Shown: positions 1,192 to 59,491 of the stretch, one piece after another
How positions within the stretch are numbered: the stretch's first letter is position 1
How the letters are laid out: the number at the start of each line of letters is the position of its first letter
Source: Candidatus Zambryskiibacteriota bacterium
Lineage (GTDB): Bacteria; Patescibacteriota; Minisyncoccia; Phycocordibacterales; Zambryskibacteraceae
Direction: 5' to 3'
Assembly: GCA_016177225.1 (NCBI GenBank)
Contig: JACOVQ010000004.1
Location: 3,328 to 67,327, forward strand
DNA length: 64,000 nt
The notes under the pieces: model-generated
What the model saw: only the letters and a program-made list of their open reading frames with translations
Databases searched by the model: none
What the model was told of the DNA's origin: nothing
Program-made: the position numbers and the translations under genes

Positions 1192-1543
1192 GGAGTCTAT
1201 TTATGACTTGGATGTAATTATTGACAAATATCTTAGGGAGTTATTGGGCCACGATTCCGTTTGTGTTTTCAGAATACTTTGCGGGTCACTCGCCAATGAA
1301 CTATGTTCTATCGCTGACTTAGATGTTCGTATTCGAACGGTCGTTTCTCATCAAACAATATGTGTTTCCTGCGAGAATAACGCGGAAATCGCGACTATGC
1401 TTGACTTTCTCTACATTGCTCGATTCGAGCAACAAATCCGACGCACAGCATCCGAACATCTTCCGCAGAACTGGTTCTTTGGATATGACGAACCTGGATG
1501 TCTATTAATACAGCGTATCGAACCACGGTCGAGAAATCTGTGA
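1184..1543 (+). CDS. nucleotidyltransferase-fold protein (MNT/Pol-beta-like, GS..x9..DLD motif)
   Basis: Motif CGSLANELCSIADLDV resembles the GS-X-DxD core of minimal nucleotidyltransferases; AT-richer than the element that follows; overlaps murD stop. Confidence 0.35.
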   Translation: MDRESIYDLDVIIDKYLRELLGHDSVCVFRILCGSLANELCSIADLDVRIRTVVSHQTICVSCENNAEIATMLDFLYIARFEQQIRRTASEHLPQNWFFGYDEPGCLLIQRIEPRSRNL

Positions 1544-1951
1544 GAACTTGACAAAATATAAAAGTTGGTTGAGCGCTTCTGGTATTTGCAAAGGCAACCA
1601 GGTATTTGTCCTAACTTGCTGGTTTCTCTTTACGAACCTGCGCAGGTCCGCTCGCCATTGACAAAACTTCCAGCAGGGCAATCCGGCCGTATGGTCCTTG
1701 TGCGGATGAGAAATGACAACCAATTCAATCGATCGGTCTTGCGCAAGCCTCAGAACCGTCGGTAGTCCCTTCGCAAAGTCGGCCGCCTTCGGCCCCGCGT
1801 CGATGAGGATCGTGAATGGCTCGCCCTGCTGGGAAATCTGGACAACAGCGGCGTCACCTTGGCCGACATCTAAGAAGGTGACCTTCATTTCGGCTGTGGC
1901 GCTGACCGGTGCCACGAGCGCGATAATCATTAGAGGCAAGTGAAGGCGCAT
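1505..1951 (-). CDS. secreted MBL-fold metallo-hydrolase, probably C-terminally degenerate (start taken at internal Met after which a signal peptide follows)
   Basis: Signal peptide MRLHLPLMIIALVAPVSATA; FLDVGQGDA and HPHKDH (HxHxDH) motifs; C-terminal third lacks MBL features. Confidence 0.4.
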   Translation of the reverse strand: MRLHLPLMIIALVAPVSATAEMKVTFLDVGQGDAAVVQISQQGEPFTILIDAGPKAADFAKGLPTVLRLAQDRSIELVVISHPHKDHTAGLPCWKFCQWRADLRRFVKRNQQVRTNTWLPLQIPEALNQLLYFVKFSQISRPWFDTLY

Positions 1952-2190
1952 CGGCGATCTCTGGTGGCATGGTGCACCGACGCATATATGAAAAGCAAGC
2001 ATGACACATGCGAGTAACGTCGGGCGCGTGGACACAACGTTTGTCTTGGATGCAACAATCGATTCTAAAACATCTCCTATCAAATCTTGCGGTGACATAG
2101 TGGACTTAGTAGACGTTCCACAGATGGCTGCGTGCAATTTGGTTACGGATTCATTTGAGAATTAGCTGAGATGAGACCGCTTTGCTACTT

Positions 2191-3534
2191 CTAAACAATG
2201 TCCACTAAGTCCACTAAGTCACTTTCTCCTTCGGGTGCGGTTATGCGGTATCGCTCGAACAAAGCTTTGAGCCGAAGCTCCTCAGAGTGTGGGATGACGA
2301 AGAGCCCCTGAACACGGTGGGTTTTCAGTTTCAACTTTTTTCGCACAATCGCCCCGATCCATTTCTCCGTGATCCTGCGCTCATACTCATGCCCGAACTT
2401 TTCAGTGAACCGAGCCGTGATATCGCCGATGGCGAGCCGCGCTTGTGCATTCGCTGTCAGCAACTCCTGGATGACACCAAGCACCTGCGCCTCGATATCC
2501 GTTTCTCGGTCAGTAGCAATTTCCTTGGCATAAAGATTCGCCAAGTGACGAAGCGATGCCTTCGTGTCTTCATCTGCAATCATGCTCAAGAGCGGACTGA
2601 AGATTTGATTCAGCCGTGGTTCAACACCCCGATCAATCTGATTCCGAAGCTCACGTGGCTTATGCAGATTGCGAAATCTGAACATGAGGAGTTTGTTTCG
2701 TAGCACCAAAGCTTCCTCTTCATACACCGACGGCAGATTAATCGGAATATCCGATCGCAGTTTTCCGTTACCCGTATCTTCGGTAATAAAGCGGCTTTCT
2801 AGAGCACGATCTTGGAAAAATCCGCGAGTGGCAATAATTTTGGGGCCAAACACGCTGTAAGCAACGGGATTGAACTCCTTCGTGGTATGGGATTGCTCGC
2901 TGCGTAGCACCGGAAAGCCCCGCGAATTTCCGTTGTTGAGGATCTTGACCAGTTCGGCTTTCTCGTCGCTCATCCGGAAATCTCCCTCGTCTATAAGGAG
3001 CGTGCCGTGGAAGCTGTCCAGGATTCGGAATATCGGAGAAATACTTGACGCGCCACTGGCAAATATTGGCCGGAACATGATCGCCCCAGCGATTAACAGG
3101 AACCTTGTTTTACCACTGCCGAAGTCGCCACGAACACGTAAGTACGGCAGTTCATTGAATGCTTCATAGACCCAGGACAAGAGGATGTAATACACGGTGA
3201 TACTTTCGAACAGAGGACTGACATCGACATAGCGGTGAATAAAGGCGCGAATATCTTTAATGAGCCGTTCTTCCGATTCATACTCGACAGTCTCCGAAGG
3301 AAACAGGACGATTCGATTTCGGATCAGATTGTTGTTCGGTGAGTACGGCACAAGCGTCTGATACTTACTGACAGGGAACACCTGTTCATACCGAATGTTG
3401 CCGCCCGTGTATACAGCAAACAAGGTCTCCGCCGTTTCCGGTCGATAGACCATTTCCACGATCGTGCCGGTAACCGGTTCACCACCCACAAACGGTATCT
3501 TGCGCGGGCCTTCCTTCTTTTCAACTCCTTCCAT
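2191..3534 (-). CDS. P-loop NTPase, putative replication/primase-helicase-type protein of the element
   Basis: Walker A GDFGSGKT, Walker B LLIDEGD about 45 aa later; 447 aa; sits in the replication position of the island. Confidence 0.45.
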   Translation of the reverse strand: MEGVEKKEGPRKIPFVGGEPVTGTIVEMVYRPETAETLFAVYTGGNIRYEQVFPVSKYQTLVPYSPNNNLIRNRIVLFPSETVEYESEERLIKDIRAFIHRYVDVSPLFESITVYYILLSWVYEAFNELPYLRVRGDFGSGKTRFLLIAGAIMFRPIFASGASSISPIFRILDSFHGTLLIDEGDFRMSDEKAELVKILNNGNSRGFPVLRSEQSHTTKEFNPVAYSVFGPKIIATRGFFQDRALESRFITEDTGNGKLRSDIPINLPSVYEEEALVLRNKLLMFRFRNLHKPRELRNQIDRGVEPRLNQIFSPLLSMIADEDTKASLRHLANLYAKEIATDRETDIEAQVLGVIQELLTANAQARLAIGDITARFTEKFGHEYERRITEKWIGAIVRKKLKLKTHRVQGLFVIPHSEELRLKALFERYRITAPEGESDLVDLVDIV

Positions 3535-4276
3535 AAGATTGCATTAGGACGTCGATGGCTTTCTGTCTGAGAGTTTCAAGGGCAGAGATGTAGACACGGA
3601 CATTGATGAGCGGCTTACCCAGTAGAAGATATTCGTCATGCCAGTTTTGCCGATCCAGAGAATCAATGAAGGTGAAGACGACTTCGTGTCCATTCGCTTC
3701 AATCCCGACGATTGTTGCCCCGCGAGCGAACAGATAAGCGGCAAGGAAGAGGTCGCGAGTTTTCCAGTATCGGTCTCGATTAGTCATTGTGATAAAGCCA
3801 CGTAACGGCGAGCGACACCGCGTCAAACATTGGTACCCAGAGTGATCTTGCCGTTCCCAGGGACGCCTCGGTTTCGGCAAACAACTCTTCAACTCAGGGA
3901 ACCACCTGACCAAAGCATGCATGATCATCTCCTTGTTCACCCGCTCCAGCTTGCAGAGCGATCGGAAGCACTCCGAGATGTCCTCTCGGCTGAAGGCTGT
4001 AATTTCAATGGAGTGCTCAATGGATTCCTCGCGCACTGTACGGACGAATTGGCTCCGGAAAGCTTCGGGGATCCCGGCAGGTGGCGGAAGAACAACAATG
4101 CTCGGTTCATAGCGGCGCACAAGCGAGCGAAACAGAGGCGCTGTCACCTTGTCATTACGATCAGAAAGCGGAATCCTAGACAACTCCTTGGAGCCCCAAT
4201 CAACCAGACGATTTTCCTCGAAGACGGCGTAGCCGACATGACGATTCTCCGGCTGCATGGCAAGGATTGTTTTCAT
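3521..4276 (-). CDS. RNase-H-fold (RuvC/YqgF-like) protein with unknown C-terminal domain
   Basis: N-terminus KTILAMQPENRHVGYAVFEE resembles the resolvase start ILGLDxGxxxxGxAV; assignment tentative. Confidence 0.3.
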   Translation of the reverse strand: MKTILAMQPENRHVGYAVFEENRLVDWGSKELSRIPLSDRNDKVTAPLFRSLVRRYEPSIVVLPPPAGIPEAFRSQFVRTVREESIEHSIEITAFSREDISECFRSLCKLERVNKEMIMHALVRWFPELKSCLPKPRRPWERQDHSGYQCLTRCRSPLRGFITMTNRDRYWKTRDLFLAAYLFARGATIVGIEANGHEVVFTFIDSLDRQNWHDEYLLLGKPLINVRVYISALETLRQKAIDVLMQSYGRS

Positions 4277-4710
4277 ATGCCGTGAGCTTCATGCTCGGTT
4301 GATAACCGACGCAGAAGCGATTCGAGATTGGCTCTGATAATGTTTGCACGAATTCGCTTTCTTTCGGACACGCGCATCCGCTTCTCTGGCTCGATTACCA
4401 GTCTCCGAACGTTCGCTTCCGTGACAACTTCGACCTCCAGTGCCACATGCGGCCAGAGTTCCTCGAATGAACGATTAAATAGGAGCTGAAAGACTATGCA
4501 CTCACGGACTGTCGGCAGGGCGAGCCCGTTCTCCATGGCCGAAATCCGGGACATGGATCTGAGGCCGAGAATATCCGCCAAGTGACGCTGATCTAAACCG
4601 AGTCCCTTTCTAGATGTACGAAGATAATTTTTGAACGGATGTGCGGACATGGAGTACTTCCACGATATCGGCGCAGGAGTATGTCGAAGTAGAGGGGAAT
4701 ATTTCTGCAA
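4273..4710 (-). CDS. XRE-family HTH transcriptional regulator (repressor-like); true start may be the internal Met near 4650
   Basis: HTH segment LGLDQRHLADILGLRSMSRISAMENG; divergent to a second HTH gene. Confidence 0.55.
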   Translation of the reverse strand: MQKYSPLLRHTPAPISWKYSMSAHPFKNYLRTSRKGLGLDQRHLADILGLRSMSRISAMENGLALPTVRECIVFQLLFNRSFEELWPHVALEVEVVTEANVRRLVIEPEKRMRVSERKRIRANIIRANLESLLRRLSTEHEAHGI

Positions 4711-4719
4711 TACAGAAAT
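4701..4719. promoter_or_regulatory. perfect inverted repeat ATTTCTG-N5-CAGAAAT, candidate operator in the repressor/cro intergenic region
   Basis: Read directly; lies between the divergent HTH genes. Confidence 0.4.
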
Positions 4720-4740
4720 GTTGGATAGCCCCGAGGCGGG

Positions 4741-4768
4741 TTGACATTAGAGCGCATTTGATTAATAT
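4741..4768 (+). promoter_or_regulatory. sigma70-like promoter (TTGACA-16nt-TAATAT) reading toward the Cro-like gene
   Basis: -35 at 4741-4746, -10 at 4763-4768. Confidence 0.4.
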
Positions 4769-4879
4769 GACTCGGGCGAACGGCCCAATGGCCGGTTCGA
4801 TTAGTCAGTAAAACCGCTGGTTTTGAGCCGTTTACTGATGTATCTCTGCCAAGCGCGACACTTTTTAAGACTATAGGCA

Positions 4880-4897
4880 GTTGTCGCGCGCGACAAC
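4880..4897. promoter_or_regulatory. perfect 18-bp palindrome GTTGTCGCGCGCGACAAC just upstream of the Cro-like start
   Basis: Read directly. Confidence 0.4.
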
Positions 4898-4910
4898 CCA
4901 AGCTATCCCC

Positions 4911-5195
4911 ATGCCGTCCACACATTCCACAAAATCAGTCGAACCATTTGTTTTTGTTTCGAATCTCCTGCCACTCCTGCGGGAGAGGGGAAAGACGCAG
5001 AAGGATCTTGCGCTGAAAACCGGTCTGACAAAGGCGCGCATTAGTCGGCTCGCTAACCAACGAATTGTTCAAGCGATCGTTACGCGTACGGCAATCAAAA
5101 TTTGCGCTGCTCTTTCGGATTGGCCCCGGATAAATGACCAGAAGAGAGTGGGCGTGAGGCTTGACGCTCTGTTTCCAGCACATCCAGTGAACTAG
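4911..5195 (+). CDS. Cro/CI-type HTH DNA-binding protein
   Basis: HTH segment KTQKDLALKTGLTKARISRLANQ; ATG at 4911 preferred over the TTG-initiated ORF at 4881. Confidence 0.5.
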   Translation: MPSTHSTKSVEPFVFVSNLLPLLRERGKTQKDLALKTGLTKARISRLANQRIVQAIVTRTAIKICAALSDWPRINDQKRVGVRLDALFPAHPVN

Positions 5196-5283
5196 CTTCT
5201 GGCAACGCTACGAACTGCTGCTTCGCTGCCAGCGAAAATCTCCCCTCTATCCCTGTACTCGCAAGAGACGTAGCATCGCCGGC

Positions 5284-5508
5284 ATGAATGGCGACGATGA
5301 TCATTACGTGGAATTTCGAAAACTCTATCCGAACCTCACAGAGGAAGAAGCTATCGAGGCAGCAGACAACCTGGATGCTTACCTCGAAACCATCATCGCC
5401 ATATACGAGGATTTGCGCAACGATTCTGGGCGCTACCAACAGTTCCTGGCTTTGACCGATAGCATTTCCGGCGGCTATACTGATCCTGTTAATTCCTCGC
5501 CGACATAA
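5284..5508 (+). CDS. small acidic hypothetical protein (possible recombination directionality factor, by position only)
   Basis: 74-aa ORF immediately upstream of the recombinase. Confidence 0.25.
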   Translation: MNGDDDHYVEFRKLYPNLTEEEAIEAADNLDAYLETIIAIYEDLRNDSGRYQQFLALTDSISGGYTDPVNSSPT

Positions 5509-5525
5509 CTTCCAACTACATTTCG

Positions 5526-6965
5526 ATGAAACAATGCTTCGCATACATACGTGTGTCCACTGCTAAGCAAGGTGAAAAAGGCGTATCGCTCCAGGAGCAA
5601 CGTGATGCCATCAGCCACTTCGCGGATCGTAACGGTCTGAAAGTGATCGAGTGGTATGAAGAACGGGAGACCGCCGCTAAACGCGGCCGCCCGAAATTCA
5701 CCGAGATGCTGAAGCGCCTTAAGAAAGGGGACGCTAATGGGGTGGTCATCCACAAAATTGACCGCAGCGCGCGTAATCTCCGCGACTGGGCGGATCTTGG
5801 GGAAATGATCGACTCAGGCATCGATGTTTACTTCGCCAATGAAAGTCTAGACCTGCATTCACGTGGCGGTCGGCTATCGGCCGACATCCAGGCCGTCATC
5901 GCTGCTGATTACATTCGGAACTTAAAGGAGGAGGTTCGCAAAGGCTTTTACGGTCGAATCAAACAGGGTTTGTATCCGCTGCCGGCGCCCATTGGCTACC
6001 TCGATCGTGGAAAAGGGCAACCGAAAGTGCCAGATCCTACAAAAGCACCACTGATCCGGCAGACGTTTGAACTTTACTCGAGCCGCCGTTACAGTTTGGT
6101 CGAATTGGTTGATGCGGCATTTGCTCTCGGTTTGCGAAACAAGCACGGTCGCAAAATTACCCGCTCCGCATTGTCTGACATCCTCAACAATCCTTTCTAC
6201 ATTGGATTGATCAGACTTCGCCGCACTGGCGAAACTTTCACAGGTATTCATGAACCAATCGTAAAGCCGCGGCTTTTCAAGCGCGTCCAAGAGATTCTTC
6301 GAGGAAAGACTGTAGTCAAATTGACACGACCAGAGTTTCAGTTCCGGCGGCTGCTTAAATGCGGACACTGCAAATATTCGCTTGTCGGCGAACGGCACAA
6401 AGGGCATACCTACTATCGCTGCTACGTCAGTACTTGCCCTGGTAAATGTGTCCGCGAAGAAAAAGTTGTCGAAGCAATCGACCGTAGCTTTACCCCCCTT
6501 ACATTGGACGACGCCGAAAAGACGTACTGGCGCCAACGTCTGCAAGCCATGAGGCTGGATGCGACGAAACACGTGGTAGACCAACAACAATCGGTAAAGC
6601 TCAGTTTGGCCGCCATCTCTGATCGGTTAAACCGGCTCACAGATGCGTACCTTGATTCTGGCATCGATCGGTCTACCTTCGAGAGCCGGAAAGGAATCTT
6701 GCTTCTGGAAAAGAAGCAATTGGAAGAACGAGAGCACGAATTGCAAGGAAATGCCGAGCAGACCGTCGAAACCCTTACGAGAATCTTCGAACTGGCAAAT
6801 ACGGCTCAGTTGAGCTACCAACTGGCGAATCCCGTCAGAAAGCGTGAGTTGGTCGAGGAGATAACTTCGAACCGCTTTGTAACAGCAAAAAACGTTGTGG
6901 TTGAGCTACGAAATCCGTTCAACCTGATCGCAAATAGACACATCGAGCACTGTAGTGGACCCTAG
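5526..6965 (+). CDS. large serine recombinase (resolvase domain + recombinase domain + zinc ribbon)
   Basis: Catalytic YIRVSTAKQ; recombinase region; CxxC...CYVSTCPGKC zinc ribbon; coiled-coil C-terminus; stop codon overlaps the tRNA-Ala 3' end. Confidence 0.85.
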   Translation: MKQCFAYIRVSTAKQGEKGVSLQEQRDAISHFADRNGLKVIEWYEERETAAKRGRPKFTEMLKRLKKGDANGVVIHKIDRSARNLRDWADLGEMIDSGIDVYFANESLDLHSRGGRLSADIQAVIAADYIRNLKEEVRKGFYGRIKQGLYPLPAPIGYLDRGKGQPKVPDPTKAPLIRQTFELYSSRRYSLVELVDAAFALGLRNKHGRKITRSALSDILNNPFYIGLIRLRRTGETFTGIHEPIVKPRLFKRVQEILRGKTVVKLTRPEFQFRRLLKCGHCKYSLVGERHKGHTYYRCYVSTCPGKCVREEKVVEAIDRSFTPLTLDDAEKTYWRQRLQAMRLDATKHVVDQQQSVKLSLAAISDRLNRLTDAYLDSGIDRSTFESRKGILLLEKKQLEEREHELQGNAEQTVETLTRIFELANTAQLSYQLANPVRKRELVEEITSNRFVTAKNVVVELRNPFNLIANRHIEHCSGP

Positions 6966-7028
6966 CGGATTCGAACCGCTGACCTCCTCATTGCAAATGA
7001 GACGCTCTACCAACTAAGCTAAGGGCCC
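6956..7028 (-). tRNA. tRNA-Ala (anticodon TGC), canonical D and T loops, CCA not encoded
   Basis: Reverse complement GGGCCCTTAGCTTAGTTGGTAGAGCGTCTCATTTGCAATGAGGAGGTCAGCGGTTCGAATCCGCTAGGGTCCA; G3:U70 present. Confidence 0.8.
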
Positions 7029-7074: not shown

Positions 7075-7148
7075 GGGCTCATGGTATAGCAGTAACACGC
7101 GTCCATGGCATGGACGAGTCCGGGGTGCGACTCCCCGTGAGTCCACCA
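7075..7148 (+). tRNA. tRNA-Ala-like (anticodon GGC), atypical D loop (no GG) and T loop TGCGACT; CCA encoded
   Basis: GGGCTCA..CGTCC-ATGGCAT-GGACG..CGGGG-TGCGACT-CCCCG-TGAGTCC-A-CCA; G3:U70 present. Confidence 0.5.
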
Positions 7149-7157
7149 AATTTTTAC

Positions 7158-7230
7158 GGGCTGTTAGTTCAGTTAGTAGAACACTCGATTCGCATTCGAG
7201 AGGTCGTCGGTGCAATTCCGATACAGTCCA
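7158..7230 (+). tRNA. tRNA-Ala (anticodon CGC), D loop AGTTAGTA and T loop TGCAATT (non-canonical at positions 18/55)
   Basis: GGGCTGT TA GTTC AGTTAGTA GAAC A CTCGA TTCGCAT TCGAG AGGTC GTCGG TGCAATT CCGAT ACAGTCC A; G3:U70 present. Confidence 0.7.
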
Positions 7231-7231
7231 C

Positions 7232-13680: not shown

Positions 13681-13950
13681 CCTTTTTGGAGGTGCACATG
13701 TGGTCGCAACAGATTGACTGGGCGTATTGGGTCAGATTTTCTCTGGTCTCCGTCTTTTTTATCGCCGCCGCCGCGGTATTTCATGTTTTGATTGTTCCAG
13801 CCATTGCGGAATTGTTTCGCACAAGCAAAACGAGAGGAAAAAGATGACCGCCAAAACGCGCGAGCCTAAAGCTCGCGCGAACCCTTTTATAGAGAAATAT
13901 TGGAATCTAAAACCCCATTTACCATATGCAGAAATTCTTGTACTATTTGG

Positions 13951-16140
13951 ATGATGAGCGCATACGACCCAAAAAAAATTGAGCCGAAGTGGCAGAAAGA
14001 GTGGGAGCAAGCCGGCCTCTACCACGCTGAAGATTCTTCTTCAAAACCCAAATACTACACTCTTATAGAATTTCCGTATCCATCCGGAGATGGTTTACAT
14101 GTTGGGCATCCGCGTCCTTATATCGGGTTAGACATTGTCTCAAGAAAAAGAAGAATGGAAGGATTCAATGTGCTTTACCCGATAGGATGGGATGCCTTCG
14201 GTTTGCCGACAGAAAATTACGCCCTTAAAACCGGTAAAGACCCGAGAATTGTCACAAAAGAGAATACCGACACTTTTCGCCGACAGATCCAGTCACTCGG
14301 AATTTCATTCGACTGGTCGCGAGAGATTAATACCACCGACCCAGAATATTATAAATGGACGCAATGGCTCTTTTTGAAATTTCTTGAGCGCGGCTTGGCA
14401 TACAAAGCCAAGATGCCGATTAACTGGTGTCCGAAAGATAAAATCGGCTTGGCTAACGAAGAAGTGGTAGATGGAAAATGTGAGCGTTGCGGTACTGAAG
14501 TGGAAAAAAGGGAAAGAAAACAGTGGATGCTTGCTATTACCAAATATGCAGATAGACTAGCTGACGATTTAGATACTGTTGATTATCCAGAACGTGTAAA
14601 AATCCAACAAAGAAATTGGATAGGTAGAAGCGAGGGAGCGCTGATTAAATTTGACGACATAGAAATTTTTACCACAAGACCTGATACGATTCGCGGAGCA
14701 ACCTTTATTGTGATGTCCGGAAAAGAAGATAAATTTACCGGCCGCTACGTTATCAATCCGGCGACGAGAGAAAAAATTCCGGTCTGGGAAGCCGAGTATG
14801 TCATGGCCGATTACGGTACCGGAGCCATTATGGGCGTGCCGGCTGACGACGAGCGCGACAGAATATTTGCCGAGAAACATCATCTGCCGATTGTTGAAAA
14901 TTACACAAAAGCCGAATTCGAAGATTATGGGAAAAAAGTCGCTAAATATAAACTGCGTGACTGGGTATTCTCTCGCCAACGATATTGGGGCGAACCCATA
15001 CCGGTTGTACATTGTGGCAAATGCGGCATTGTGCCCGTGCCGGAATCTGAACTGCCGGTAAAATTACCGGAGATTAAAAATTACCAGCCTACAGAAACAG
15101 GAGAATCACCTCTGGCAAACATTTCCGGATGGGTTAATACAATTTGTCCTAAGTGTGGCGGTAAGGCGAAGAGGGAAACCGATGTTATGCCTAACTGGGC
15201 GGGTTCTTCATGGTATTTTTATAGATATTGCGACCCTCATAATGATAAACAGTTTGCCTCGCTGGAAAAACTGAAATACTGGATGACGCCTGTCCGCCAG
15301 TCCGGGGGCGGGGTTGATTGGTATAACGGGGGGATGGAACATACCGTTCTTCATCTTCTATACTCGCGATTTTGGAATAAGTTTCTTTTTGACCTTGGTC
15401 TGGTGCCGACAAGCGAGCCGTACAAAAAACGTACTTCTCATGGCCTGATTCTTGCCGAAGGAGGAGAAAAGATGAGCAAGTCGAAAGGCAATGTCATCAA
15501 TCCGGATTCTATTGTGGAGCGTTTCGGCGCTGATACTTTGCGCGTGTATGAAATGTTTATGGGCCCGTTTGAACAAGCCATTGCTTGGAGCGAGAGCTCG
15601 CTAGTTGGACCAAGAAGGTTTTTGGAAAAAGTATGGAAACTTGCGGGAAAAGGTCAGACCTTAAATATTGATTCTCAAGGTCTGACCTTGATGCATCAGA
15701 CTATCAAAAAAGTTTCGGAAGATATAGAAGCAATGAGATTTAATACTGCGGTTTCAACTTTGATGATTTTTGTCAACGAGTTGGATAAACGAGAAGAAAT
15801 CTCACAAAAAGAATTTGAAATTTTACTGCTTTTACTTGCGCCATTCGCGCCGCATATTACCGAAGAACTTTGGTCAACACTCGGTGTTAGCCAAAATTCG
15901 ATTCATACGGAAAAATGGCCAAAGTATGACGAATCAAAATTGATTGCGGACGAAGTAACGATTGTGATTCAGGTCAATGGCAAAGTTCGAGGTAAATTTG
16001 TGGCGAGTGCAAATATCACTAAAGAGAAGATAATTAAGGCGGCACAGGAAGTTCCGGAAATCCAAAAATGGCTTGTGGACAAGAATATCAAAAAGTCGAT
16101 TTGTGTGCCTGGAAAGCTGGTTAATTTCGTGACATCTTGA
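13951..16140 (+). CDS. leuS: leucine--tRNA ligase (shortened CP1/editing region)
   Basis: HVGHPRPY HIGH motif, KMSKSKGN; start set at MMSAYDPKKIE rather than the upstream ORF start. Confidence 0.9.
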   Translation: MMSAYDPKKIEPKWQKEWEQAGLYHAEDSSSKPKYYTLIEFPYPSGDGLHVGHPRPYIGLDIVSRKRRMEGFNVLYPIGWDAFGLPTENYALKTGKDPRIVTKENTDTFRRQIQSLGISFDWSREINTTDPEYYKWTQWLFLKFLERGLAYKAKMPINWCPKDKIGLANEEVVDGKCERCGTEVEKRERKQWMLAITKYADRLADDLDTVDYPERVKIQQRNWIGRSEGALIKFDDIEIFTTRPDTIRGATFIVMSGKEDKFTGRYVINPATREKIPVWEAEYVMADYGTGAIMGVPADDERDRIFAEKHHLPIVENYTKAEFEDYGKKVAKYKLRDWVFSRQRYWGEPIPVVHCGKCGIVPVPESELPVKLPEIKNYQPTETGESPLANISGWVNTICPKCGGKAKRETDVMPNWAGSSWYFYRYCDPHNDKQFASLEKLKYWMTPVRQSGGGVDWYNGGMEHTVLHLLYSRFWNKFLFDLGLVPTSEPYKKRTSHGLILAEGGEKMSKSKGNVINPDSIVERFGADTLRVYEMFMGPFEQAIAWSESSLVGPRRFLEKVWKLAGKGQTLNIDSQGLTLMHQTIKKVSEDIEAMRFNTAVSTLMIFVNELDKREEISQKEFEILLLLLAPFAPHITEELWSTLGVSQNSIHTEKWPKYDESKLIADEVTIVIQVNGKVRGKFVASANITKEKIIKAAQEVPEIQKWLVDKNIKKSICVPGKLVNFVTS

Positions 16141-21070: not shown

Positions 21071-21769
21071 ATGACAGTGTCGGAACAAATAGTGATCCTT
21101 AAGGCCAATGGCAAGCGGGAGAGCTTTGAGCCTGAAAAATTGCGAGCATCGCTCATGCATTCCGGAGCGACGGAAGAGGCCGCTACAAATGTGCTAACTC
21201 ATCTCTTGCCGGAGTTGCATGATGATATGACAACGGAGGAAATTTATAAGCACGCTTTCTCGACTTTACAGCGGATGTCCAAGCCGATTGCCAGGAGCTA
21301 TTCTCTCCGCCGAGCGGTAATGAGCTTGGGACCGTCGGGATTTCCTTTTGAAGATTTTGTTGCCGAGGTTTTGAGAGTACAGGGCTTCGAATGCGCCACG
21401 AGGCAGGTGGTTTTGGGCGGATGTGTGCCGCACGAAGTGGACGTGGTGGCTTATAACGAGAAAAAATTGATTATGGTGGAAGCGAAGTTCCACAACGAGC
21501 TTGGAACCAAATCGGATTTGAAGGTGGCGCTCTATGTCAAGGCAAGGTTTGACGACCTTAAGGAAAATGTTTTTGACTACGGAGGCAAAGCGAGAGCTAT
21601 CACCGATGCCTGGCTTATCACCAATACTAAATTTTCGAGTACCGCCATCCACTACGGCGTCTGCAAGAACCTTACAATGATAGGCTGGAATTATCCGGAG
21701 AGAGGCAACCTTCAAGATATGATTGAGAACAGTCCGGCATTATTGAAGAGAATTTATGGAGAAAGATGA
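21071..21769 (+). CDS. ATP-cone domain fused to a PD-(D/E)xK (Mrr-cat-like) nuclease domain
   Basis: N-terminus IVILKANGKRESFEPEKLRASL (ATP-cone); C-terminus HEVDVVAY...LIMVEAKF (D..(E)xK nuclease motif). Confidence 0.55.
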   Translation: MTVSEQIVILKANGKRESFEPEKLRASLMHSGATEEAATNVLTHLLPELHDDMTTEEIYKHAFSTLQRMSKPIARSYSLRRAVMSLGPSGFPFEDFVAEVLRVQGFECATRQVVLGGCVPHEVDVVAYNEKKLIMVEAKFHNELGTKSDLKVALYVKARFDDLKENVFDYGGKARAITDAWLITNTKFSSTAIHYGVCKNLTMIGWNYPERGNLQDMIENSPALLKRIYGER

Positions 21770-22337
21770 AGCTTTAAGACAGATTAAAAATGAGGTGGTC
21801 GCTCTCTCCGTCTCTCCGCTTTATGCCGAGCGGGTAAAACATAAATACTTCCCGGTAATAGGAGAGGGAAATCATAATGCCGAAGTTATGTTTATCGGCG
21901 AAGCGCCGGGCGAGAACGAAGCAAAGACCGGCAGGCCGTTTTGCGGGCGGGCGGGCAAGGTGCTCGACATGCTTTTAGAGTTTGTCGGTATTGCGCGCAA
22001 GGATGTCTATGTGACTAACATCGTCAAAGACCGCCCGCCCGCCAATCGCGACCCCAGCCCTGAAGAAATTGAAATTTACGCGCCGTTTCTTGACCGGCAG
22101 ATTGAGATTATTAAGCCCAAAGCGGTGGCTACGCTCGGGCGATTCTCCATGGTATACGTCATGAACCACTACGGTCTCGAGTGGGAAGTGGGACCAATAA
22201 GCGTTTTGCACGGACAAATCTTTCAAACTTCTAACTTCAAACTTATACCCTTGTACCATCCCGCCGCCGCCATTTACAACCAGCATCTCCTGGATACTCT
22301 GAAGGAGGATTTCAAAATATTAAAAACTCTGATTTAA
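21756..22337 (+). CDS. uracil-DNA glycosylase, family 4
   Basis: GEAPGENEAKTGRPFCGRAGKVL motif. Confidence 0.8.
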   Translation: MEKDEALRQIKNEVVALSVSPLYAERVKHKYFPVIGEGNHNAEVMFIGEAPGENEAKTGRPFCGRAGKVLDMLLEFVGIARKDVYVTNIVKDRPPANRDPSPEEIEIYAPFLDRQIEIIKPKAVATLGRFSMVYVMNHYGLEWEVGPISVLHGQIFQTSNFKLIPLYHPAAAIYNQHLLDTLKEDFKILKTLI

Positions 22338-22346
22338 TAGTAGCTC

Positions 22347-23489
22347 ATGAAGTCGGAAGAAATCAGAAGCAAATTCCTAGAGTTTTTCCAAAAGCGCGGG
22401 CATGTCATCGTTCCCTCATCTTCTGTCGTGCCTGATAAGAACGATTTATCCGTGCTGTTTACAACAGCTGGCATGCAGCAATTCAAGCCGTTTTACTTGA
22501 GAGAAAAATCGCCTTATGGCAGTAATGTGGCCTCATCCCAAAAGTGTGTGCGTACTTCCGATATCGAAGAAGTGGGGGATGAAAGACATCTGACATTTTT
22601 TGAAATGCTTGGAAACTTTTCTTTCGGCGGATACTGGAAAAAAGAAGCGATTTCCTACGCGCACGAATTTATAACAAAAGAGATGGGCCTATCAATAGAT
22701 TATGTCACTATTTTTGAAGGCGATAGCGAAGTTTTCGAAGATAAGGAATCTGTAAACATTTGGAAAGCGATTGACCCGAATTTAACGATAAAGAAATTTG
22801 GCCGTGAAGATAACTTCTGGGGTCCTACGGGCGAGTCCGGCCCATGCGGCCCAACAACGGAAATTTATGTCAACGGCATCGAAATCTGGAACATCGTGTT
22901 CAATGAATATTTTAAAAATGTCGAGGGAAAGTTTGAGAAGCTCAAACAGACAGGCATTGATACCGGCATGGGTCTGGAGCGCCTGACTATGGCGCTCCAG
23001 AAGAAAGAAACCGTTTTCGAAACCGATTTGTTCAAATCTACTATGCAAGTGGCCAATTCAAGCATTATTGCCGACCATATCCGTACCTCCGTGTTCATGA
23101 TTGCCGACGGCGTTTTGCCGTCCAACACCGACCGCGGCTATGTGTTGAGAAGGCTTTTGCGGCGCGCATATATACATGCGCGCAAACTTAAAATTGAAAC
23201 CGAAACCTTGAATGCTGTGATTGGAAAGGTAGTGGAACATCCAAGCTATAAGGGTCTCTATGCTTTCGCGGAAAATACGAAAGAAATAGTAATGAATGAA
23301 ATCGAGAAGTTTAAAAAAACGCTCGAGACCGGATTAAAACAAGTTAAAGCAGACCGAGACCCGTTTACTCTTTTTACGAGCTTTGGTTTGCCGCTTGAAA
23401 TTATTAAAGAAGTAGTGCCAAACGTCGATGAAGATAAGTTTAAGAAACAAATGGAAGAGCATAGAAAACTTTCCAGTAGTAGTTTATAA
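22347..23489 (+). CDS. alaS: alanine--tRNA ligase, N-terminal catalytic fragment only (380 aa)
   Basis: MKSEEIRSKFLEFFQKRGHVIVPSSSVVP...TTAGMQQFKP canonical AlaRS N-terminus; ORF ends before the editing and C-Ala domains. Confidence 0.8.
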   Translation: MKSEEIRSKFLEFFQKRGHVIVPSSSVVPDKNDLSVLFTTAGMQQFKPFYLREKSPYGSNVASSQKCVRTSDIEEVGDERHLTFFEMLGNFSFGGYWKKEAISYAHEFITKEMGLSIDYVTIFEGDSEVFEDKESVNIWKAIDPNLTIKKFGREDNFWGPTGESGPCGPTTEIYVNGIEIWNIVFNEYFKNVEGKFEKLKQTGIDTGMGLERLTMALQKKETVFETDLFKSTMQVANSSIIADHIRTSVFMIADGVLPSNTDRGYVLRRLLRRAYIHARKLKIETETLNAVIGKVVEHPSYKGLYAFAENTKEIVMNEIEKFKKTLETGLKQVKADRDPFTLFTSFGLPLEIIKEVVPNVDEDKFKKQMEEHRKLSSSSL

Positions 23490-23496
23490 TTCCTTT

Positions 23497-24732
23497 ATGC
23501 CGAAGCACATCGAAGACATAATCATTCCTCTAAAGAGAAAAACTATCAGAGACATTCCTATTCCCAGTAATCGTAAAAAATCTGAGCACTTTGCGACTGC
23601 TCCGTCTGAAGAAAGAAAGATAAAACATCACTCAAAAAAAAAGTTATGGGTTGCTTCTGGCGTCGTCTTATTACTGTTAATCTTTGGCGCATTAGCAGTA
23701 TTTGACGGGGCAACCCTCGCTTATGTGCCCAAATCCGCCAATCTCTCTTTCAAAGGCGATGTTTATACGGCAAGGCGCACGGGAGAAAATCTTTCATACA
23801 GCATAGTCAAACTTTCCAAAGATAAAGAGAAGAGCGTGCCTGCTTCCGGCACGGAAGAAGTAAAACGTAAAGCCTCCGGTACCATTGTGGTGTATAACTC
23901 CGCAAGCGCGCCGCAGAAATTGATAGAGAATACGCGCTTCCAAACGTCGGAAGGGAAGGTTTATCGCATCAAAGACGCGGTAATTGTTCCCGCCAACGGT
24001 TTCATGGAAGCGCTCGCGTATGCCGATGAGGCAGGAGATAGTTATAACGTCGGTTTGTCAGACTTTACTCTGCCCGGGCTTGCCGGCACTTCGAAATTTA
24101 AAGACGTTTACGGCCGTTCCAAGACGCCGATGGCCGGCGGGTTTATAGGCAAGGAAGCGGTAGTAAAGAATGAAGATAAAGCCAAAGCCACCTCAGAGCT
24201 TGAAGCGGCTCTTCGCGAGGAACTCCTGGCCGAAGCGAAAGCCCAAGTGCCTGATGGATTCAGTATGTTTCCGAATCTTGTTGCCGTAAACTTTGAGACC
24301 TTGCCGTCGACGGCTTTGTCTGGCGCCAATGCTGTCATTAAAGTTAAGGGCGATTTTGCCGGCATGATGTTTAAGAAAAGCGATTTATCAAATCAATTGG
24401 CTAACAGTAAGATAAAAATTGCCAGTGGAGAATTGGTGGATATAATGCCGCTTGAGTCTCTCGAAGTATCTTTTGCCGGTAATGCTCCAAAGGACCTTAT
24501 ATCAATGAATGAAATCAACCTTTCCGTGACTGGCGACACTACGGCCGTATGGCGCACCAATGAGACCGCTCTCAAAACAGACTTAGCCGGCCGCAGTAAG
24601 CGCGACATTCCGGCGATATTGAATAATTATCCCGCCGTTGTTTCGGCTACGGCCACCGTCAGACCGTTTTGGAAAAATAGTTTTCCTCTCAACTCCGCCA
24701 AAATTACGATAAAGAAAAATGCTCCAAAATAA
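23497..24732 (+). CDS. membrane-anchored hypothetical protein
   Basis: Single N-terminal TM; start set at Met24 after the alaS stop. Confidence 0.45.
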
Positions 24733-33291: not shown

Positions 33292-35040
33292 ATGGAAAAT
33301 ATCCCGAGCACTCCGTTTAAATTTATCTGGTTTGCCATTAAGCCGTACAAGAGGTGGTTTTTCTTAGCACTTTTTCTAGTTCTCTTATCTGATATTTTCG
33401 GTGGCTTACAGTCCTATACTCTTAAAAGACTGATTGACGCTGCTAATTCTTCCTCAAGCTCTGTTTTTATGTGGGTTCTTATGTATCCGATTTTAATTTT
33501 GCTTTCTGTCGGGGCTGTAAGAGCTACTGGATTTATTCAAAATTTTCTTACAATTAAGTCTCGGCTAAGGGCTGCTAAATCTCTATTTGAATATCTGTCG
33601 CTTCATAGCCTTTCTTTTTTCAACGACAGATTTTCCGGTGCGTTAAGTGAAAAAGTAAGCATCGTATCATCAAATATCTCCAGATTGATAAATAACTCGT
33701 TATGGAATTTCTTCGGCTTTATTGCCTCGATTGCTGTAACAACGGCTATTATGTATTCGGCAAATAAGCAAGTTGCGTACACTTTCATCTTAGGCATAGC
33801 CGTATTAACCCCATTCAACTTATGGATAACACGCCGACAAGTTTCTCTAGCAGACAGAGCTGTAGAATTAGCTGCCAAGTTGCGCGGGCAGGTTATTGAT
33901 ACAGTTACTAATATATCCGCAGTACAGCAATATGCTAGAAGATTCTTTGAAATCGATCGATTGGATAAGGCTATGGATGAATGGAGATTTGCTGTCGTAA
34001 AGAGTAATAATTTTCGAGAATGGATTCTTGTTATTAATAACGCTATTGTCAGTGTGTTTATCGGAAGCATTATGCTTTGGGCTTTCTCTTTGTGGTCTAA
34101 AGAGGTTATAACAATCGGTTCGCTGGTAATGATTATATCTTTGGCACACAGCTTCATGCGTGAACTGTCTCATATAGGCCAGCGTATCAATGAACTGATG
34201 GAATTTTATGGAGAAATGCAGAATGGTTTAAAAGAGATAGTTCAGCCGCACAGTATCGTTGATAAGTCTGGTGCAAGAAGATTAAAAGTTACGGAAGGCA
34301 CGGTTAAGTTTGAGACCATATCTTTCGCTTATGGAGAGAATCAAAGCAAGATATTTGCAAACTTAACTTTCGAAATTAAGGGTGGAGAAAAGATTGGTAT
34401 CGTTGGAGCAAGCGGGGCGGGAAAGACAACTCTTATGAAATTGCTCCTGCGCCAGCACGATATTTTGGGAGGAATTATTTCTGTTGATGGGCAAGATGTC
34501 CGAGACATAACTCAGGAGAGTTTGCGAGAGAATATTTCTATAGTGCCCCAAGAACCAATGCTTTTCCATCGTACAATCCGCGAAAATATTTTATACGGCA
34601 AGTTAGATGGCACAGAAGAAGAAATGATAGAAGTGGCCAAGAAAGCTCAGGCTCACGATTTTATTGAATTACTGCCAAATAAATATGATTCATTGGTAGG
34701 GGAGCGAGGAGTGAAGCTCTCTGTCGGCCAGCGCCAGCGCATCGCCATTGCTAGAGCATTTCTCAAAAATGCGCCGATTCTTATACTTGATGAAGCGACA
34801 AGTGCTCTGGATAGCGAAAGTGAGGTGGCGGTGCAGAAAGCGCTCCATGCGCTTATGGAAGGCAAGACTGTTTTTGCCATAGCGCACCGCCTCTCAACTT
34901 TGCGCGACATGGACAGAATTCTAGTATTCAAGGATGGTCAAATTGTAGAAGACGGGACTCACCGCACGCTTCTAAAAAATAAGAATGGCGTCTACGCTTC
35001 ATTTTGGTCCCACCAAGCAGGTGGGTTTATCCAGGCTTAA
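33292..35040 (+). CDS. ABC exporter, fused permease/ATP-binding protein (MsbA-like)
   Basis: 6-TM N-terminus; Walker A GASGAGKTT, LSVGQRQRIAIARA, ILILDEATSALD. Confidence 0.85.
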   Translation: MENIPSTPFKFIWFAIKPYKRWFFLALFLVLLSDIFGGLQSYTLKRLIDAANSSSSSVFMWVLMYPILILLSVGAVRATGFIQNFLTIKSRLRAAKSLFEYLSLHSLSFFNDRFSGALSEKVSIVSSNISRLINNSLWNFFGFIASIAVTTAIMYSANKQVAYTFILGIAVLTPFNLWITRRQVSLADRAVELAAKLRGQVIDTVTNISAVQQYARRFFEIDRLDKAMDEWRFAVVKSNNFREWILVINNAIVSVFIGSIMLWAFSLWSKEVITIGSLVMIISLAHSFMRELSHIGQRINELMEFYGEMQNGLKEIVQPHSIVDKSGARRLKVTEGTVKFETISFAYGENQSKIFANLTFEIKGGEKIGIVGASGAGKTTLMKLLLRQHDILGGIISVDGQDVRDITQESLRENISIVPQEPMLFHRTIRENILYGKLDGTEEEMIEVAKKAQAHDFIELLPNKYDSLVGERGVKLSVGQRQRIAIARAFLKNAPILILDEATSALDSESEVAVQKALHALMEGKTVFAIAHRLSTLRDMDRILVFKDGQIVEDGTHRTLLKNKNGVYASFWSHQAGGFIQA

Positions 35041-35072
35041 TTAAAAGGGAAATTAAGGTTATAATTGACTCT

Positions 35073-36023
35073 ATGGGTAAAAACATACTACTCTCCGGCG
35101 TCAAGCCGACTGGTCGGCCCCATATTGGCAATTTTTTCGGCGCCATGAAGCAGTTTGTGGAGCTTCAGAACGAATACGAAGCCCATATCTTCATCGCTGA
35201 CCTGCACGCTCTGACAACGATTCAGAACAGGAAAGAACTCGAAGAAAACACGCTTGGTGTGCTCTTGGACTACTTGGCCATAGGTCTGGACCCCGAGAAG
35301 ACTGTGATTTATAAACAATCCGATGTGCCGGAAGTCGCCGAACTTGCCTGGATTTTCAATTGTCTCACTACCATGCCGTACCTCTCTCGTGCTCATGCAT
35401 ACAAAGATGCCGAGGCCAAGAATAAAGAAGTGAATGTCGGACTTTTTGGTTACCCGCTCCTGATGGCGGCTGACATCCTTTTGCCGGGAGCCGATGTGGT
35501 GCCTGTCGGGCAGGACCAGAAACAACATGTGGAAATTGCCCGAGACACTGCCGAGAAATTTAATCGTATCTTCGGCGACACTTTCAAATTGCCGGAGCCG
35601 TTGATTCTTGAAAATGCCGCCGTGGTGCCGGGTACGGATGGTCAAAAGATGTCCAAGAGCTATGGCAATACCATCGGACTCTTTGCCTCTGACGGAGAAA
35701 TAGAAAAAGCGGTGATGAGCATTGTCACTGATTCCGATTCAGAGATTCCGCAAAATGTGTACGCGATACATTCTCTATTGCGAGATAAAACGGAGTTGAA
35801 CGCTCTCTATGCTGAGAATAAAGGGCAATATAAGAAATTAAAAGAACTCCTGGTCGAAGATTTGAAGAATTTCGTCAGACCAATGCGAGAGAAACGCCAA
35901 GCTTTTAAAAAAGATATACCTATGGTGATGGAAGTATTGAAACTTGGTGGCAAAACGGCTCGTGCCCATACTGAAGAAAAGATGGAAGAAGTGCGAGCGA
36001 AAGTGGGACTTTCGCCCTACTAG
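35073..36023 (+). CDS. trpS: tryptophan--tRNA ligase
   Basis: SGVKPTGRPHIGNF HIGH-type motif, KMSKSYGN; start at MGKNILL. Confidence 0.85.
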   Translation: MGKNILLSGVKPTGRPHIGNFFGAMKQFVELQNEYEAHIFIADLHALTTIQNRKELEENTLGVLLDYLAIGLDPEKTVIYKQSDVPEVAELAWIFNCLTTMPYLSRAHAYKDAEAKNKEVNVGLFGYPLLMAADILLPGADVVPVGQDQKQHVEIARDTAEKFNRIFGDTFKLPEPLILENAAVVPGTDGQKMSKSYGNTIGLFASDGEIEKAVMSIVTDSDSEIPQNVYAIHSLLRDKTELNALYAENKGQYKKLKELLVEDLKNFVRPMREKRQAFKKDIPMVMEVLKLGGKTARAHTEEKMEEVRAKVGLSPY

Positions 36024-36491: not shown

Positions 36492-36874
36492 TGGCTACCG
36501 GATTAGAAAATTTGAAAATATACCAGATGGCCAAAAAACTGGAACTTGAGGTTTTTAAACTACTGAAAAGTTTTCCAAAGGAAGAATGTTTTAGAAGTGT
36601 CGATCAATTGAGCCACTCTTCTTCATCAGTTACCAATAATATTGCCGAAGCTTACAATAAAAAGTCCATTAAAGATAAAACTAGGATACTGAACGATATT
36701 GTAAAGGGAGAAGCTAATGAGACGCGATCCAATCTAGAAGTATGCATAGAAAAGGGATTTCATAGTGAAAAATCATTGATAAATGGGTATACTGAACTCC
36801 TGATGGCTTTAAGTGGATATATTCGTTTTCTTCGCAATTCAGAAACTCAGACTTCTAAACTTACAAACTTATGA
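36491..36874 (+). CDS. four-helix-bundle protein (family frequently encoded in 23S rRNA intervening sequences)
   Basis: LKIYQMAKKLELEVFKLLKSFPKEE...NNIAEAYN pattern. Confidence 0.65.
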   Translation: MATGLENLKIYQMAKKLELEVFKLLKSFPKEECFRSVDQLSHSSSSVTNNIAEAYNKKSIKDKTRILNDIVKGEANETRSNLEVCIEKGFHSEKSLINGYTELLMALSGYIRFLRNSETQTSKLTNL

Positions 36875-36887
36875 ACTTACAAACTAA
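36857..36887. repeat. right inverted repeat AAACTTACAAACTTATGAACTTACAAACTAA
   Basis: Reverse complement matches the left repeat. Confidence 0.55.
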
Positions 36888-38130
36888 TTTACTACAGGGA
36901 TTCGTACATGCGCTAAGAATACAATCCAAGATAATTTTTATTGTAGTTAGAAATTTGAAAGGATTAACACAGGTTGTAGTTATGGCGGACAATCCAGAAT
37001 TTGAAACGGCTAAAAATTTGTCTTTAGAATCGGTAATTAGAGTGACTGGAAAGATGAAAGAGGCGTCACAGGCGCCGGGTGGACGAGAAATACACCCGGA
37101 CAAAATCGAAGTATTGTCAAAAGCTAATCCAGAACTTCCGATACCAGTGGTTGTTAAAGGTTCTGATGAAGAAACGGAAGCTCCTATGCGCTTCGACTAC
37201 CGCTGGCTCGATTTGCGCAAACCCGAGAAAGTCAAGATTTTCCAAATCTGGACAGAGTTTGAAAAAGGCTGGAGAAAGTATTGGGATGAGAACAACTTTA
37301 TCCAGCTTTATCCGCCTGCATTAATGTCTACATCTTCAGAGAGCGGAGCGGAAGTTTTTGAAGTCAACTACTTTGATCGCAAGGCATACTTGGCCCAATC
37401 ACCCCAGTTCTACAAACAAATGGCCATGGCCGCCGGTTTCGAAAAAGTTTTCATGATGTCTCCAGTGTTTCGCGCGGAGGAGTCCTTTACCACGAGGCAT
37501 ATGACGGAGTTTACCGGTTGGGACTTTGAAATTTCTTATATCAAAGACCATCACGATATCATGGATGCCGAAGAGGGGATGATTATTGCCGGATTTAAAC
37601 AGCTTCTTGAGAAATTTCCCGAGCTAAACATCACTATCCCCACACAACCTTTCCCAAGGATAAGCATGGTTGAGGCAAAGAAGATACTTCGAACACTCGG
37701 TGTTGCATCTCCAGAAGAACACGACCTTTCTCCCGAAGAAGAACGGGCCATTTCGGAGTATGTGTTAAAAGAACATAAACATGAGTTTATATTTATCACT
37801 GAGTATCATAAATCCAAGAGTGCTTTTTATCATATGTCATTAGCAAATGACCCTGAGCGTAGTCGAAGGGCAGACTTGCTTTATCGTGGTATAGAAGTGA
37901 CCACTCTGGCACAACGGGAACATCGTCCAGAAATATTGGAGAAGCAGGCGATAGAGAAAAATATGAATTTGAAATCACTCAAAGATTATCTAAACTTCTT
38001 CCGCTGGGGTTGTCCGCCGCATGGCGGCGCCGGCATCGGCCCAGGCCGTTTTATCATGAAAATTCTCGACCTTCCCAACGTCCGCGAAGTCACCTTCTTA
38101 CCGCGCGACGTCAAGCGCTTGAATCCGTAA
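36871..38130 (+). CDS. aspS: class IIb aminoacyl-tRNA ligase, archaeal-type aspartate--tRNA ligase (AsnRS not excluded)
   Basis: OB-fold N-terminus, QSPQFYKQ, FRAE...RHMTEFT, GCPPHGGAGIG. Confidence 0.75.
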   Translation: MNLQTNLLQGFVHALRIQSKIIFIVVRNLKGLTQVVVMADNPEFETAKNLSLESVIRVTGKMKEASQAPGGREIHPDKIEVLSKANPELPIPVVVKGSDEETEAPMRFDYRWLDLRKPEKVKIFQIWTEFEKGWRKYWDENNFIQLYPPALMSTSSESGAEVFEVNYFDRKAYLAQSPQFYKQMAMAAGFEKVFMMSPVFRAEESFTTRHMTEFTGWDFEISYIKDHHDIMDAEEGMIIAGFKQLLEKFPELNITIPTQPFPRISMVEAKKILRTLGVASPEEHDLSPEEERAISEYVLKEHKHEFIFITEYHKSKSAFYHMSLANDPERSRRADLLYRGIEVTTLAQREHRPEILEKQAIEKNMNLKSLKDYLNFFRWGCPPHGGAGIGPGRFIMKILDLPNVREVTFLPRDVKRLNP

Positions 38131-59296: not shown

Positions 59297-59419
59297 ATTT
59301 TAATTGTATGCTTCGCATTCACATTTTGTATGGTCACAGATATTTCTCTGTTGAGAAATTCCGTGACCCCGCCTCAGCGCCGTCGCGCTTGCGACTCACA
59401 AAAATGTCCCACATTTTTG

Positions 59420-59491
59420 TGACCTCACGGGGAATCGGACCCCGGTTCCAGCCTTGAGAAGGCTGTGTCCTAGCCGCTAGACGATGAGGCC
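59420..59491 (-). tRNA. tRNA-Glu (anticodon CTC), T loop TCCGATT (C at position 55), CCA not encoded
   Basis: Reverse complement GGCCTCATCGTCTAGCGGCTAGGACACAGCCTTCTCAAGGCTGGAACCGGGGTCCGATTCCCCGTGAGGTCA. Confidence 0.6.

Follow-up and report, generated by a model that had tools for sequence, protein, structure and literature searches.

The window considered here, a stretch of 64,000 nucleotides (64 kb) of contig JACOVQ010000004.1 (assembly GCA_016177225.1, positions 3,328 to 67,327) from a Candidatus Zambryskiibacteriota bacterium, contains an open reading frame (ORF) of the alanyl-tRNA synthetase (AlaRS) gene alaS whose product measures only 380 aa and consists of a catalytic core and a tRNA-recognition domain. 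The ORF runs from an ATG start to a TAA stop and is closely flanked, with a gap of 9 nt between the stop codon of an upstream uracil-DNA glycosylase (UDG) gene and its own start, and one of eight nt between its stop and the next gene. The neighbourhood in the window also holds infA, rpsM, rpsK, rpsD, rpoA, rplQ, rplM, rpsI, grpE and dnaK and, together with the other compact synthetases described below, fits the small genome of a member of the Patescibacteria or Candidate Phyla Radiation (CPR). The features at the locus are as follows.

21756..22337, + strand: UDG, the upstream synteny anchor (PF03167, E=1.4e-32)
22347..23489, + strand: alaS, encoding a mini-AlaRS of 380 aa with catalytic and tRNA-recognition domains only (stop codon included)
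22347..23030, + strand: class II catalytic (aminoacylation) core, about aa 1-228 (boundary approximate, from the secondary structure of the model)
23031..23486, + strand: helical tRNA-recognition domain, about aa 229-380, complete to the last helix (by alignment to E. coli residue 434/441)
23497..24732, + strand: membrane-anchored protein of 411 aa, not part of AlaRS, which marks the end of alaS

An earlier note on this DNA had described the ORF as an AlaRS with its aminoacylation core, lacking the editing domain and C-Ala, followed by an unrelated gene so that the rest of the enzyme is not adjacent, and these observations hold. Pfam PF01411 (tRNA-synt_2c) recognises the product with E=5.7e-103, the match covering positions 1-428 in a profile of 552, and the alaS model TIGR00344 is matched at positions 1-426 out of 847. 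Neither an editing domain (HxxxH and CxxxH motifs; PF07973) nor a C-Ala domain (DHHA1-like) is present in the ORF, in the downstream gene or elsewhere in the window, and seven Parcubacteria editing domains searched with tblastn against the whole 64 kb gave a best match of only E=0.3. The downstream protein of 411 aa has an N-terminal transmembrane segment, no significant Pfam family (GlxA falls below threshold at E=0.0067) and an hhalign probability of 0.25% against the editing-domain profile. Proteins of 411-557 aa with an N-terminal transmembrane segment and without a Pfam family lie between alaS and infA/rpsM across Parcubacteria, whichever form of alaS is present (in the window and at loci L004, L006, L091, L092 and L149).

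The truncation of alaS is real, being neither an artefact nor a pseudogene. The note had asked whether a sequencing error near the stop might hide a continuation; such a frameshift or read-through is out, since the stop is the same in independent assemblies, reading through the TAA leads to another stop ~25 codons on with no AlaRS-like sequence between, no frame of the window holds editing-like sequence, and the downstream protein is unrelated. Three independent Logan assemblies, which derive from separate sequencing runs, have the identical 380-aa product, and so does a Candidatus Zambryskibacteria metagenome-assembled genome (MAG) at NCBI, where it appears as MBI1974334.1. Of the 120 top-ranking database homologues, 49 are short forms of 373-432 aa that carry PF01411 only (for one of them, P0007, the gene call has a 489-aa extension at the N-terminus), and the short orthologues, about 50 in number, share 56-80% identity with the window protein. 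In ~40 of the 49 short forms the protein ends in '...AGEQKFKK' at the same alignment column; in P0034, the closest long form, this column is residue 418 and stands directly before the editing core, '...GGLAGH...YHTTTHLLH'; the longer relatives run on past this linker with '..KFKGGLAGH..YHTxTHLLH'. The window copy stops six residues before the common end, and the basic tail is therefore dispensable. A pseudogene, which the note had also entertained, is refuted by the about 50 truncated orthologues, by the invariance of the catalytic residues and by the identity of the product across assemblies.

The note erred, by contrast, in taking the tRNA-recognition domain to be incomplete. Aligned by phmmer, the 380-aa protein extends over residues 4-434 of the E. 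coli catalytic fragment, which has 441 residues, and over residues 5-423 of the Aquifex fragment, and an AlphaFold2 model (predicted local distance difference test, pLDDT, 86.8; predicted template modelling score, pTM, 0.84), for which an alignment of 41 short forms served as input, superposes on AlaRS catalytic fragments along its entire length, the best Foldseek matches being the fragments 9jc7, 3hxu, 1riq and human 5knn with query-normalised TM-scores of 0.81-0.86. The small size of the protein results from internal deletions, such as those of four residues in the motif 2 loop and of ~14 residues after GPCGP.

Motifs 1-3 are intact, and the residues R69 (22551-22553), W158, N182, D205 (22959-22961) and G207, which align to E. 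coli R69, W170, N212, D235 and G237, are invariant in 48/48 short forms and in 68 long forms, while G264-Y265 is invariant in 48/48 short forms. N260 (23124-23126), the equivalent of the G3:U70-reading Asn, N303, of E. coli, is kept in 47 of the 48 short forms; T344 (23376-23378) occupies the position of E. coli D400, and Thr is found there in all 48 short forms, in most long-form relatives and in the Tupanvirus enzyme. A search for changes accompanying the loss of editing, such as a tighter alanine pocket, showed that no alignment column distinguishes the short forms from the long ones at a level of 80% or more; weaker differences are located in the last helices and not in the active site.

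A three-domain enzyme, the small-AlaRS, is on record from the CPR, DPANN and Asgard lineages (bioRxiv 10.1101/2023.05.29.542759). The more distant homologues of the window protein are of this kind; they have 511-580 aa, share 55-65% identity with it and carry PF01411 and PF07973, without C-Ala; the closest long form, P0034 (at locus L006), is 567 aa in length and 65% identical, and has a tRNA_SAD domain. The gene order ATP-cone/UDG/alaS/about 435-aa membrane protein/infA/rpsM/rpsK/rpsD/rpoA is common to the window, to the short-form loci L004, L092 and L091 and to the long-form locus L006, the short forms P0030, P0054 and P0067 thus having the same gene order as the window and the long-form P0034; the short gene is therefore a positional orthologue of alaS from which the editing core has been removed in place. 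A neighbour-joining tree places the short forms in one large group beside the long forms, with two short sequences nested among the long ones. A search of 1.84 billion cluster representatives returned further forms of 400-450 aa, with 41-54% identity, that end at the same linker, and a protein of 434 aa from a more distant lineage (P0265, 50% identical) shows the same synteny on a 69-kb contig. The mini-AlaRS form is widespread, and it may have arisen more than once, the neighbour-joining tree being too crude for counting events; two MAGs titled Zambryskibacteria carry a long-form alaS.

The presumed substrates of the enzyme are encoded by three tRNA-Ala genes 15 kb upstream of alaS, listed here with the one other tRNA gene of the window that bears on their structure.

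6955..7028, - strand: tRNA-Ala(UGC), with G3:U70, A73 and a canonical elbow (ARAGORN and Rfam)
7075..7148, + strand: tRNA-Ala(GGC), with G3:U70, A73, an encoded CCA, T-loop TGCGACT (G55) and a D-loop without GG
7158..7231, + strand: tRNA-Ala(CGC), with G3:U70, A73, T-loop TGCAATT (G55) and D-loop AGTTAGTA (A18)
59419-59491, - strand: tRNA-Glu(CUC), with T-loop TCCGATT (C55) and a normal GG D-loop

The note had called these tRNA-Ala genes non-canonical and had seen in them, together with the short alaS, a remodelled alanine decoding system. The three genes are there and the elbow of two of them is indeed odd, G55 replacing the near-universal U55 and a D-loop A-G (A18) replacing G-G in tRNA-Ala(GGC) and tRNA-Ala(CGC); all three carry G3:U70 and A73, however, so that alanine identity is canonical, as fits an enzyme that contacts the acceptor stem only. 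In one metagenome scan (loci L093-L148) the A18 D-loop AGTTAGTA occurred in 53 tRNAs, and 45 of these have a TGC T-loop; among 81 other tRNAs at the same loci only 2 do. The tRNAs with this D-loop were mostly tRNA-Ile(GAU) and tRNA-Ala(CGC), with tRNA-Lys and others also represented, and 16 metagenome tRNA-Ala(CGC) genes have the same D-arm and T-loop as the tRNA-Ala(CGC) of the window. Judged by this covariation, A18:G55 is a real elbow pair, and one that would preclude pseudouridine-55. Within the window U55 is absent from three of the four tRNAs, all of them 'minor' isoacceptors (GGC, CGC and CUC). Since A18/G55 also occurs in tRNA-Ile and tRNA-Lys, and the tRNA-Glu of the window lacks U55 as well, the oddity of the elbow is not specific to alanine, and a remodelled decoding system is left without support; it is conceivable that the odd elbow is connected with the absence of the elbow-binding C-Ala. 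As a separate observation on this region, a large serine recombinase (5526-6965; Resolvase, Recombinase and Zn ribbon) runs up to, or just into, the 3' end of tRNA-Ala(UGC) and is preceded by genes for helix-turn-helix and DUF5659 proteins; the G+C content of this stretch (about 1500-6965) is 0.50-0.52 against about 0.44, and it is possibly a mobile element integrated at the tRNA-Ala(UGC) gene.

We consider it likely, from sequence comparison, that the 380-aa ORF encodes the working AlaRS of this organism, naturally minimised and derived from a CPR small-AlaRS by loss of the editing domain in place. The ancestor would have been a reduced CPR small-AlaRS with catalytic and recognition domains and an editing core of about 150 aa, already devoid of the beta-barrel and of C-Ala; a deletion or a stop at the linker between recognition and editing domains, at the same chromosomal locus, would have given rise to the mini-AlaRS, which purifying selection would then have kept in a large clade of Zambryskibacteria-like Parcubacteria. 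In the resulting enzyme the class II core would make alanyl-adenylate and the helical recognition domain would read G3:U70 of the tRNA-Ala acceptor stem, so that charging would proceed through acceptor-stem contacts only, by analogy with the E. coli 441N/461N, Aquifex N453 and Tupanvirus enzymes. The mini-AlaRS is probably a monomer, because the missing C-Ala is the module of dimerisation and elbow binding, and it would have no proofreading in cis of Ser-tRNA-Ala or Gly-tRNA-Ala. That no active-site change accompanies the loss of editing suggests that mischarging is tolerated, as in some reduced-genome bacteria, or handled elsewhere.

Several points weigh on the other side. Aminoacylation by the 380-aa protein is a predicted activity; one member of the G3:U70-reading pair of side chains in E. 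coli, D400, is replaced by Thr; the 64-kb window is the part of the genome that was seen, and a second alaS or an AlaX may lie elsewhere; and the score against TIGR00344, 361 bits, is under the equivalog cut-off of 457, as is expected for a truncated protein. The NCBI pipeline, for its part, names the short proteins 'alanine--tRNA ligase-related protein', 'hypothetical protein' and even GlyRS alpha, MBI1974334.1 itself carrying the wrong name 'glycine--tRNA ligase subunit alpha'; such annotation errors are systematic and result from the truncation.

The closest precedent is viral, an editing-less AlaRS layout having been described before only in one giant virus, Tupanvirus. Its mini-AlaRS (TuAlaRS) is a protein of 461 aa that derives from the eukaryotic AlaRS of the amoebal host and acts alongside the complete AlaRS of that host; the authors of the study describe it as unique, and as the sole natural synthetase to possess nothing but an aminoacylation domain (Antika et al. 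2023, PMC10036535). The same study reports that TuAlaRS and Aquifex N453 charge G3:U70 substrates, that TuAlaRS still requires G3:U70 with Thr in the place of D400, and that the Tupanvirus and C. elegans mitochondrial enzymes read G3:U70 without residues of the E. coli N303/D400 type (PMC10036535). The window protein resembles TuAlaRS in having catalytic and tRNA-recognition domains only, without editing domain or C-Ala, in its intact motifs 1-3, in a cognate tRNA-Ala with G3:U70, and in the Thr that sits where the conserved G3:U70-reading Asp would be. It differs in being bacterial, in its length of 380 aa, in its derivation from a CPR small-AlaRS, in keeping the N303-equivalent Asn that TuAlaRS has lost, and in its place at a cellular chromosomal alaS locus, where it is apparently the sole AlaRS, with an activity predicted from sequence. 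The nearest relatives of the window protein are the Parcubacteria small-AlaRS enzymes at the same locus, and its structural-alignment identity to human cytoplasmic AlaRS fragments is only 32-35%; the two mini-AlaRS forms are of independent origin and not of common descent.

With the CPR small-AlaRS the window protein shares lineage and locus, 55-65% identity over the common part, the absence of beta-barrel and C-Ala, and a compact catalytic core that includes the shortened motif 2 loop; the small-AlaRS (about 540 aa), however, keeps an editing core of ~150 aa (HxxxH/CxxxH, PF07973), whereas the window protein stops at the linker that precedes it. In domain content and fold (query-normalised TM-score 0.83-0.85) it is also like the laboratory fragments E. 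coli 441N/461N and Aquifex aeolicus N453, from which it differs in being natural, in being about 60 residues shorter through internal deletions and in lacking an equivalent of D400. These laboratory fragments activate alanine, and E. coli 461N reportedly charges G3:U70 helices, a result said to be that of Jasin, Regan and Schimmel in 1983. Nanoarchaeum equitans offers another instance of AlaRS function that is not contained in one canonical full-length gene: there the enzyme is split inside the tRNA-recognition domain, and the alpha part needs the beta part for G3:U70 specificity (PMC10036535). A split of this type, which the note had also proposed, does not describe the present case, in which the cut falls at the linker after a complete recognition domain and no beta-like second half is encoded in the window or beside six orthologous genes.

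A loss of proofreading as such would have parallels in other reduced genomes. Editing-deficient synthetases have reportedly been described in Mycoplasma and other host-restricted organisms, the work in question being said to be that of Li et al. in PNAS in 2011 and of Melnikov et al. in PNAS in 2018. The likeness lies in a reduced-genome organism whose synthetase proofreading is degraded or lost; those cases, however, concern LeuRS, ThrRS and PheRS and mostly involve point degradation, whereas in the window the whole AlaRS editing domain has been excised and the LeuRS motifs are kept. A general loss of proofreading in this genome is accordingly unsupported: the compact LeuRS (13900-16140, + strand; 746 aa) has a shortened CP1 editing domain in which the motifs TTRPDT and GTGAIM..D (GTG..D) are present. 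The orthologous LeuRS of a relative (GCA_964342515.1, locus L004, 229-2997) has 922 aa, with a NUDIX domain inserted after CP1. Further compact synthetases of the window are one of Trp/Tyr type (339 aa, 35004-36023), one of Asp/Asn type (419 aa, 36871-38130) and a GluRS (385 aa, 47430-48587), in which the catalytic-domain match falls in two stretches.

That a whole clade of Zambryskibacteria-like Parcubacteria, and probably other CPR lineages with independent truncations, manages without any AlaRS proofreading, in cis or in trans, is a proposition that we regard as quite possible, though somewhat short of an even chance. Against it stands the possibility, which we hold to be a little more doubtful and still credible, that the charging module is as described above and that AlaRS is functionally split at the domain boundary, with proofreading supplied in trans by an AlaX-like protein encoded elsewhere, or in part by DTD for Gly-tRNA-Ala. 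AlaX proteins are present across all domains of life, AlaRS editing is otherwise almost universally retained, and a free-standing editing protein of Parcubacteria type is known from another lineage, of low GC content. The latter, P0230 (L009, 806-1357), has 183 aa and is genuinely free-standing, an unrelated ORF preceding it; it spans the last helix of the recognition domain and then the editing core, and its host lineage, with 30% GC and relatives that mostly have fused genes, is unrelated to that of the window. The N-terminus of P0230 overlaps the last helix that the mini-AlaRS forms also keep, which suggests gene fission with a duplicated junction. Fission at the boundary between recognition and editing domains can thus occur, and P0230 says nothing on the lineage of the window.

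The searches made for a separate editing protein speak against proofreading in trans, if weakly. The ORFs of the 64-kb window yielded neither an editing domain nor AlaX or DTD, and no editing domain lay within 5-10 kb of the short-form orthologues at six loci. A scan of one genome per GTDB species with two narrow peptide patterns, which would miss a divergent AlaX, yielded no demonstrably free-standing editing domain among the best 80 of 323 relatives, each being fused to a catalytic domain or lying in an ORF that runs off the end of its contig, and the two long-form MAGs titled Zambryskibacteria are among these 80; this absence is weak negative evidence. Apart from P0230, the apparently free-standing matches are frameshifted long-read assemblies or contig-end fragments. 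The tRNA_SAD proteins P0141 and P0151, on contigs of 717 kb and 222 kb, are pieces of alaS produced by frameshifts in a long-read assembly, and most of the other stand-alone editing matches of 170-300 aa have internal starts or lack a Met, and are contig-end fragments. In the two contigs concerned (L007 and L008, both from ENA assembly ERZ1286166), many housekeeping genes, including rpoA, rplQ, rpsD, PCMT and alaS, are in pieces, the usual mark of long-read frameshifts left uncorrected, and protein fragments of this origin contaminate the databases. We found nothing relevant on AlaX in Parcubacteria in the literature.

It is improbable, in our judgement, that the short protein is instead a paralogue with another role, such as amino-acid activation in a non-translational pathway, and that the real alaS lies elsewhere. 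The 'AlaRS-related' name that NCBI gives to some copies and the genome beyond the window, which was not seen, would leave room for it; the short gene, however, sits amid translation genes at the exact locus of the only visible alaS of sister lineages and its product groups with those enzymes at 55-65% identity, the recognition domain and the N303 equivalent have been kept, for which an enzyme not acting on tRNA would have no need, and the genomes of the Zambryskibacteria-like group are very small. There is next to no likelihood that a longer alaS has decayed into a pseudogene here or has been cut short by an assembly or frameshift error: the protein is shorter than any textbook AlaRS and frameshifted assemblies do yield similar-looking fragments, but independent assemblies agree exactly on its sequence, some 50 orthologues terminate at this boundary, no AlaRS-like sequence lies downstream in any frame and the catalytic residues are invariant.

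The preferred reading, a working mini-AlaRS left by the loss of the editing domain in place, bears out the core intuition of the note that an AlaRS without editing domain and C-Ala is unusual. AlaRS is usually named as the one synthetase to have preserved a four-domain plan, above all the editing domain, across cellular life, the reason given being that its active site cannot exclude serine and glycine; we found no account of a cellular mini-AlaRS, from bacteria in general or from CPR, in the searchable literature. If proofreading is indeed absent both in cis and in trans, the enzyme described here would represent a natural 'acceptor-stem-only' synthetase, and AlaRS editing, so far regarded as universal in cells, would have its first known exception. 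A clade that uses a mini-AlaRS at the chromosomal alaS locus would show that the minimal module of the 'operational RNA code' suffices for a living cell, and that AlaRS editing is either dispensable or movable to another protein, and what makes up for a lost editing domain would emerge from comparing sister genomes in which its presence or absence is the sole difference. The mini-AlaRS also accounts for the recurrent mislabelling of these genes as GlyRS alpha, as 'AlaRS-related' or as hypothetical and, at 380 aa, may be the smallest natural AlaRS scaffold for engineering.

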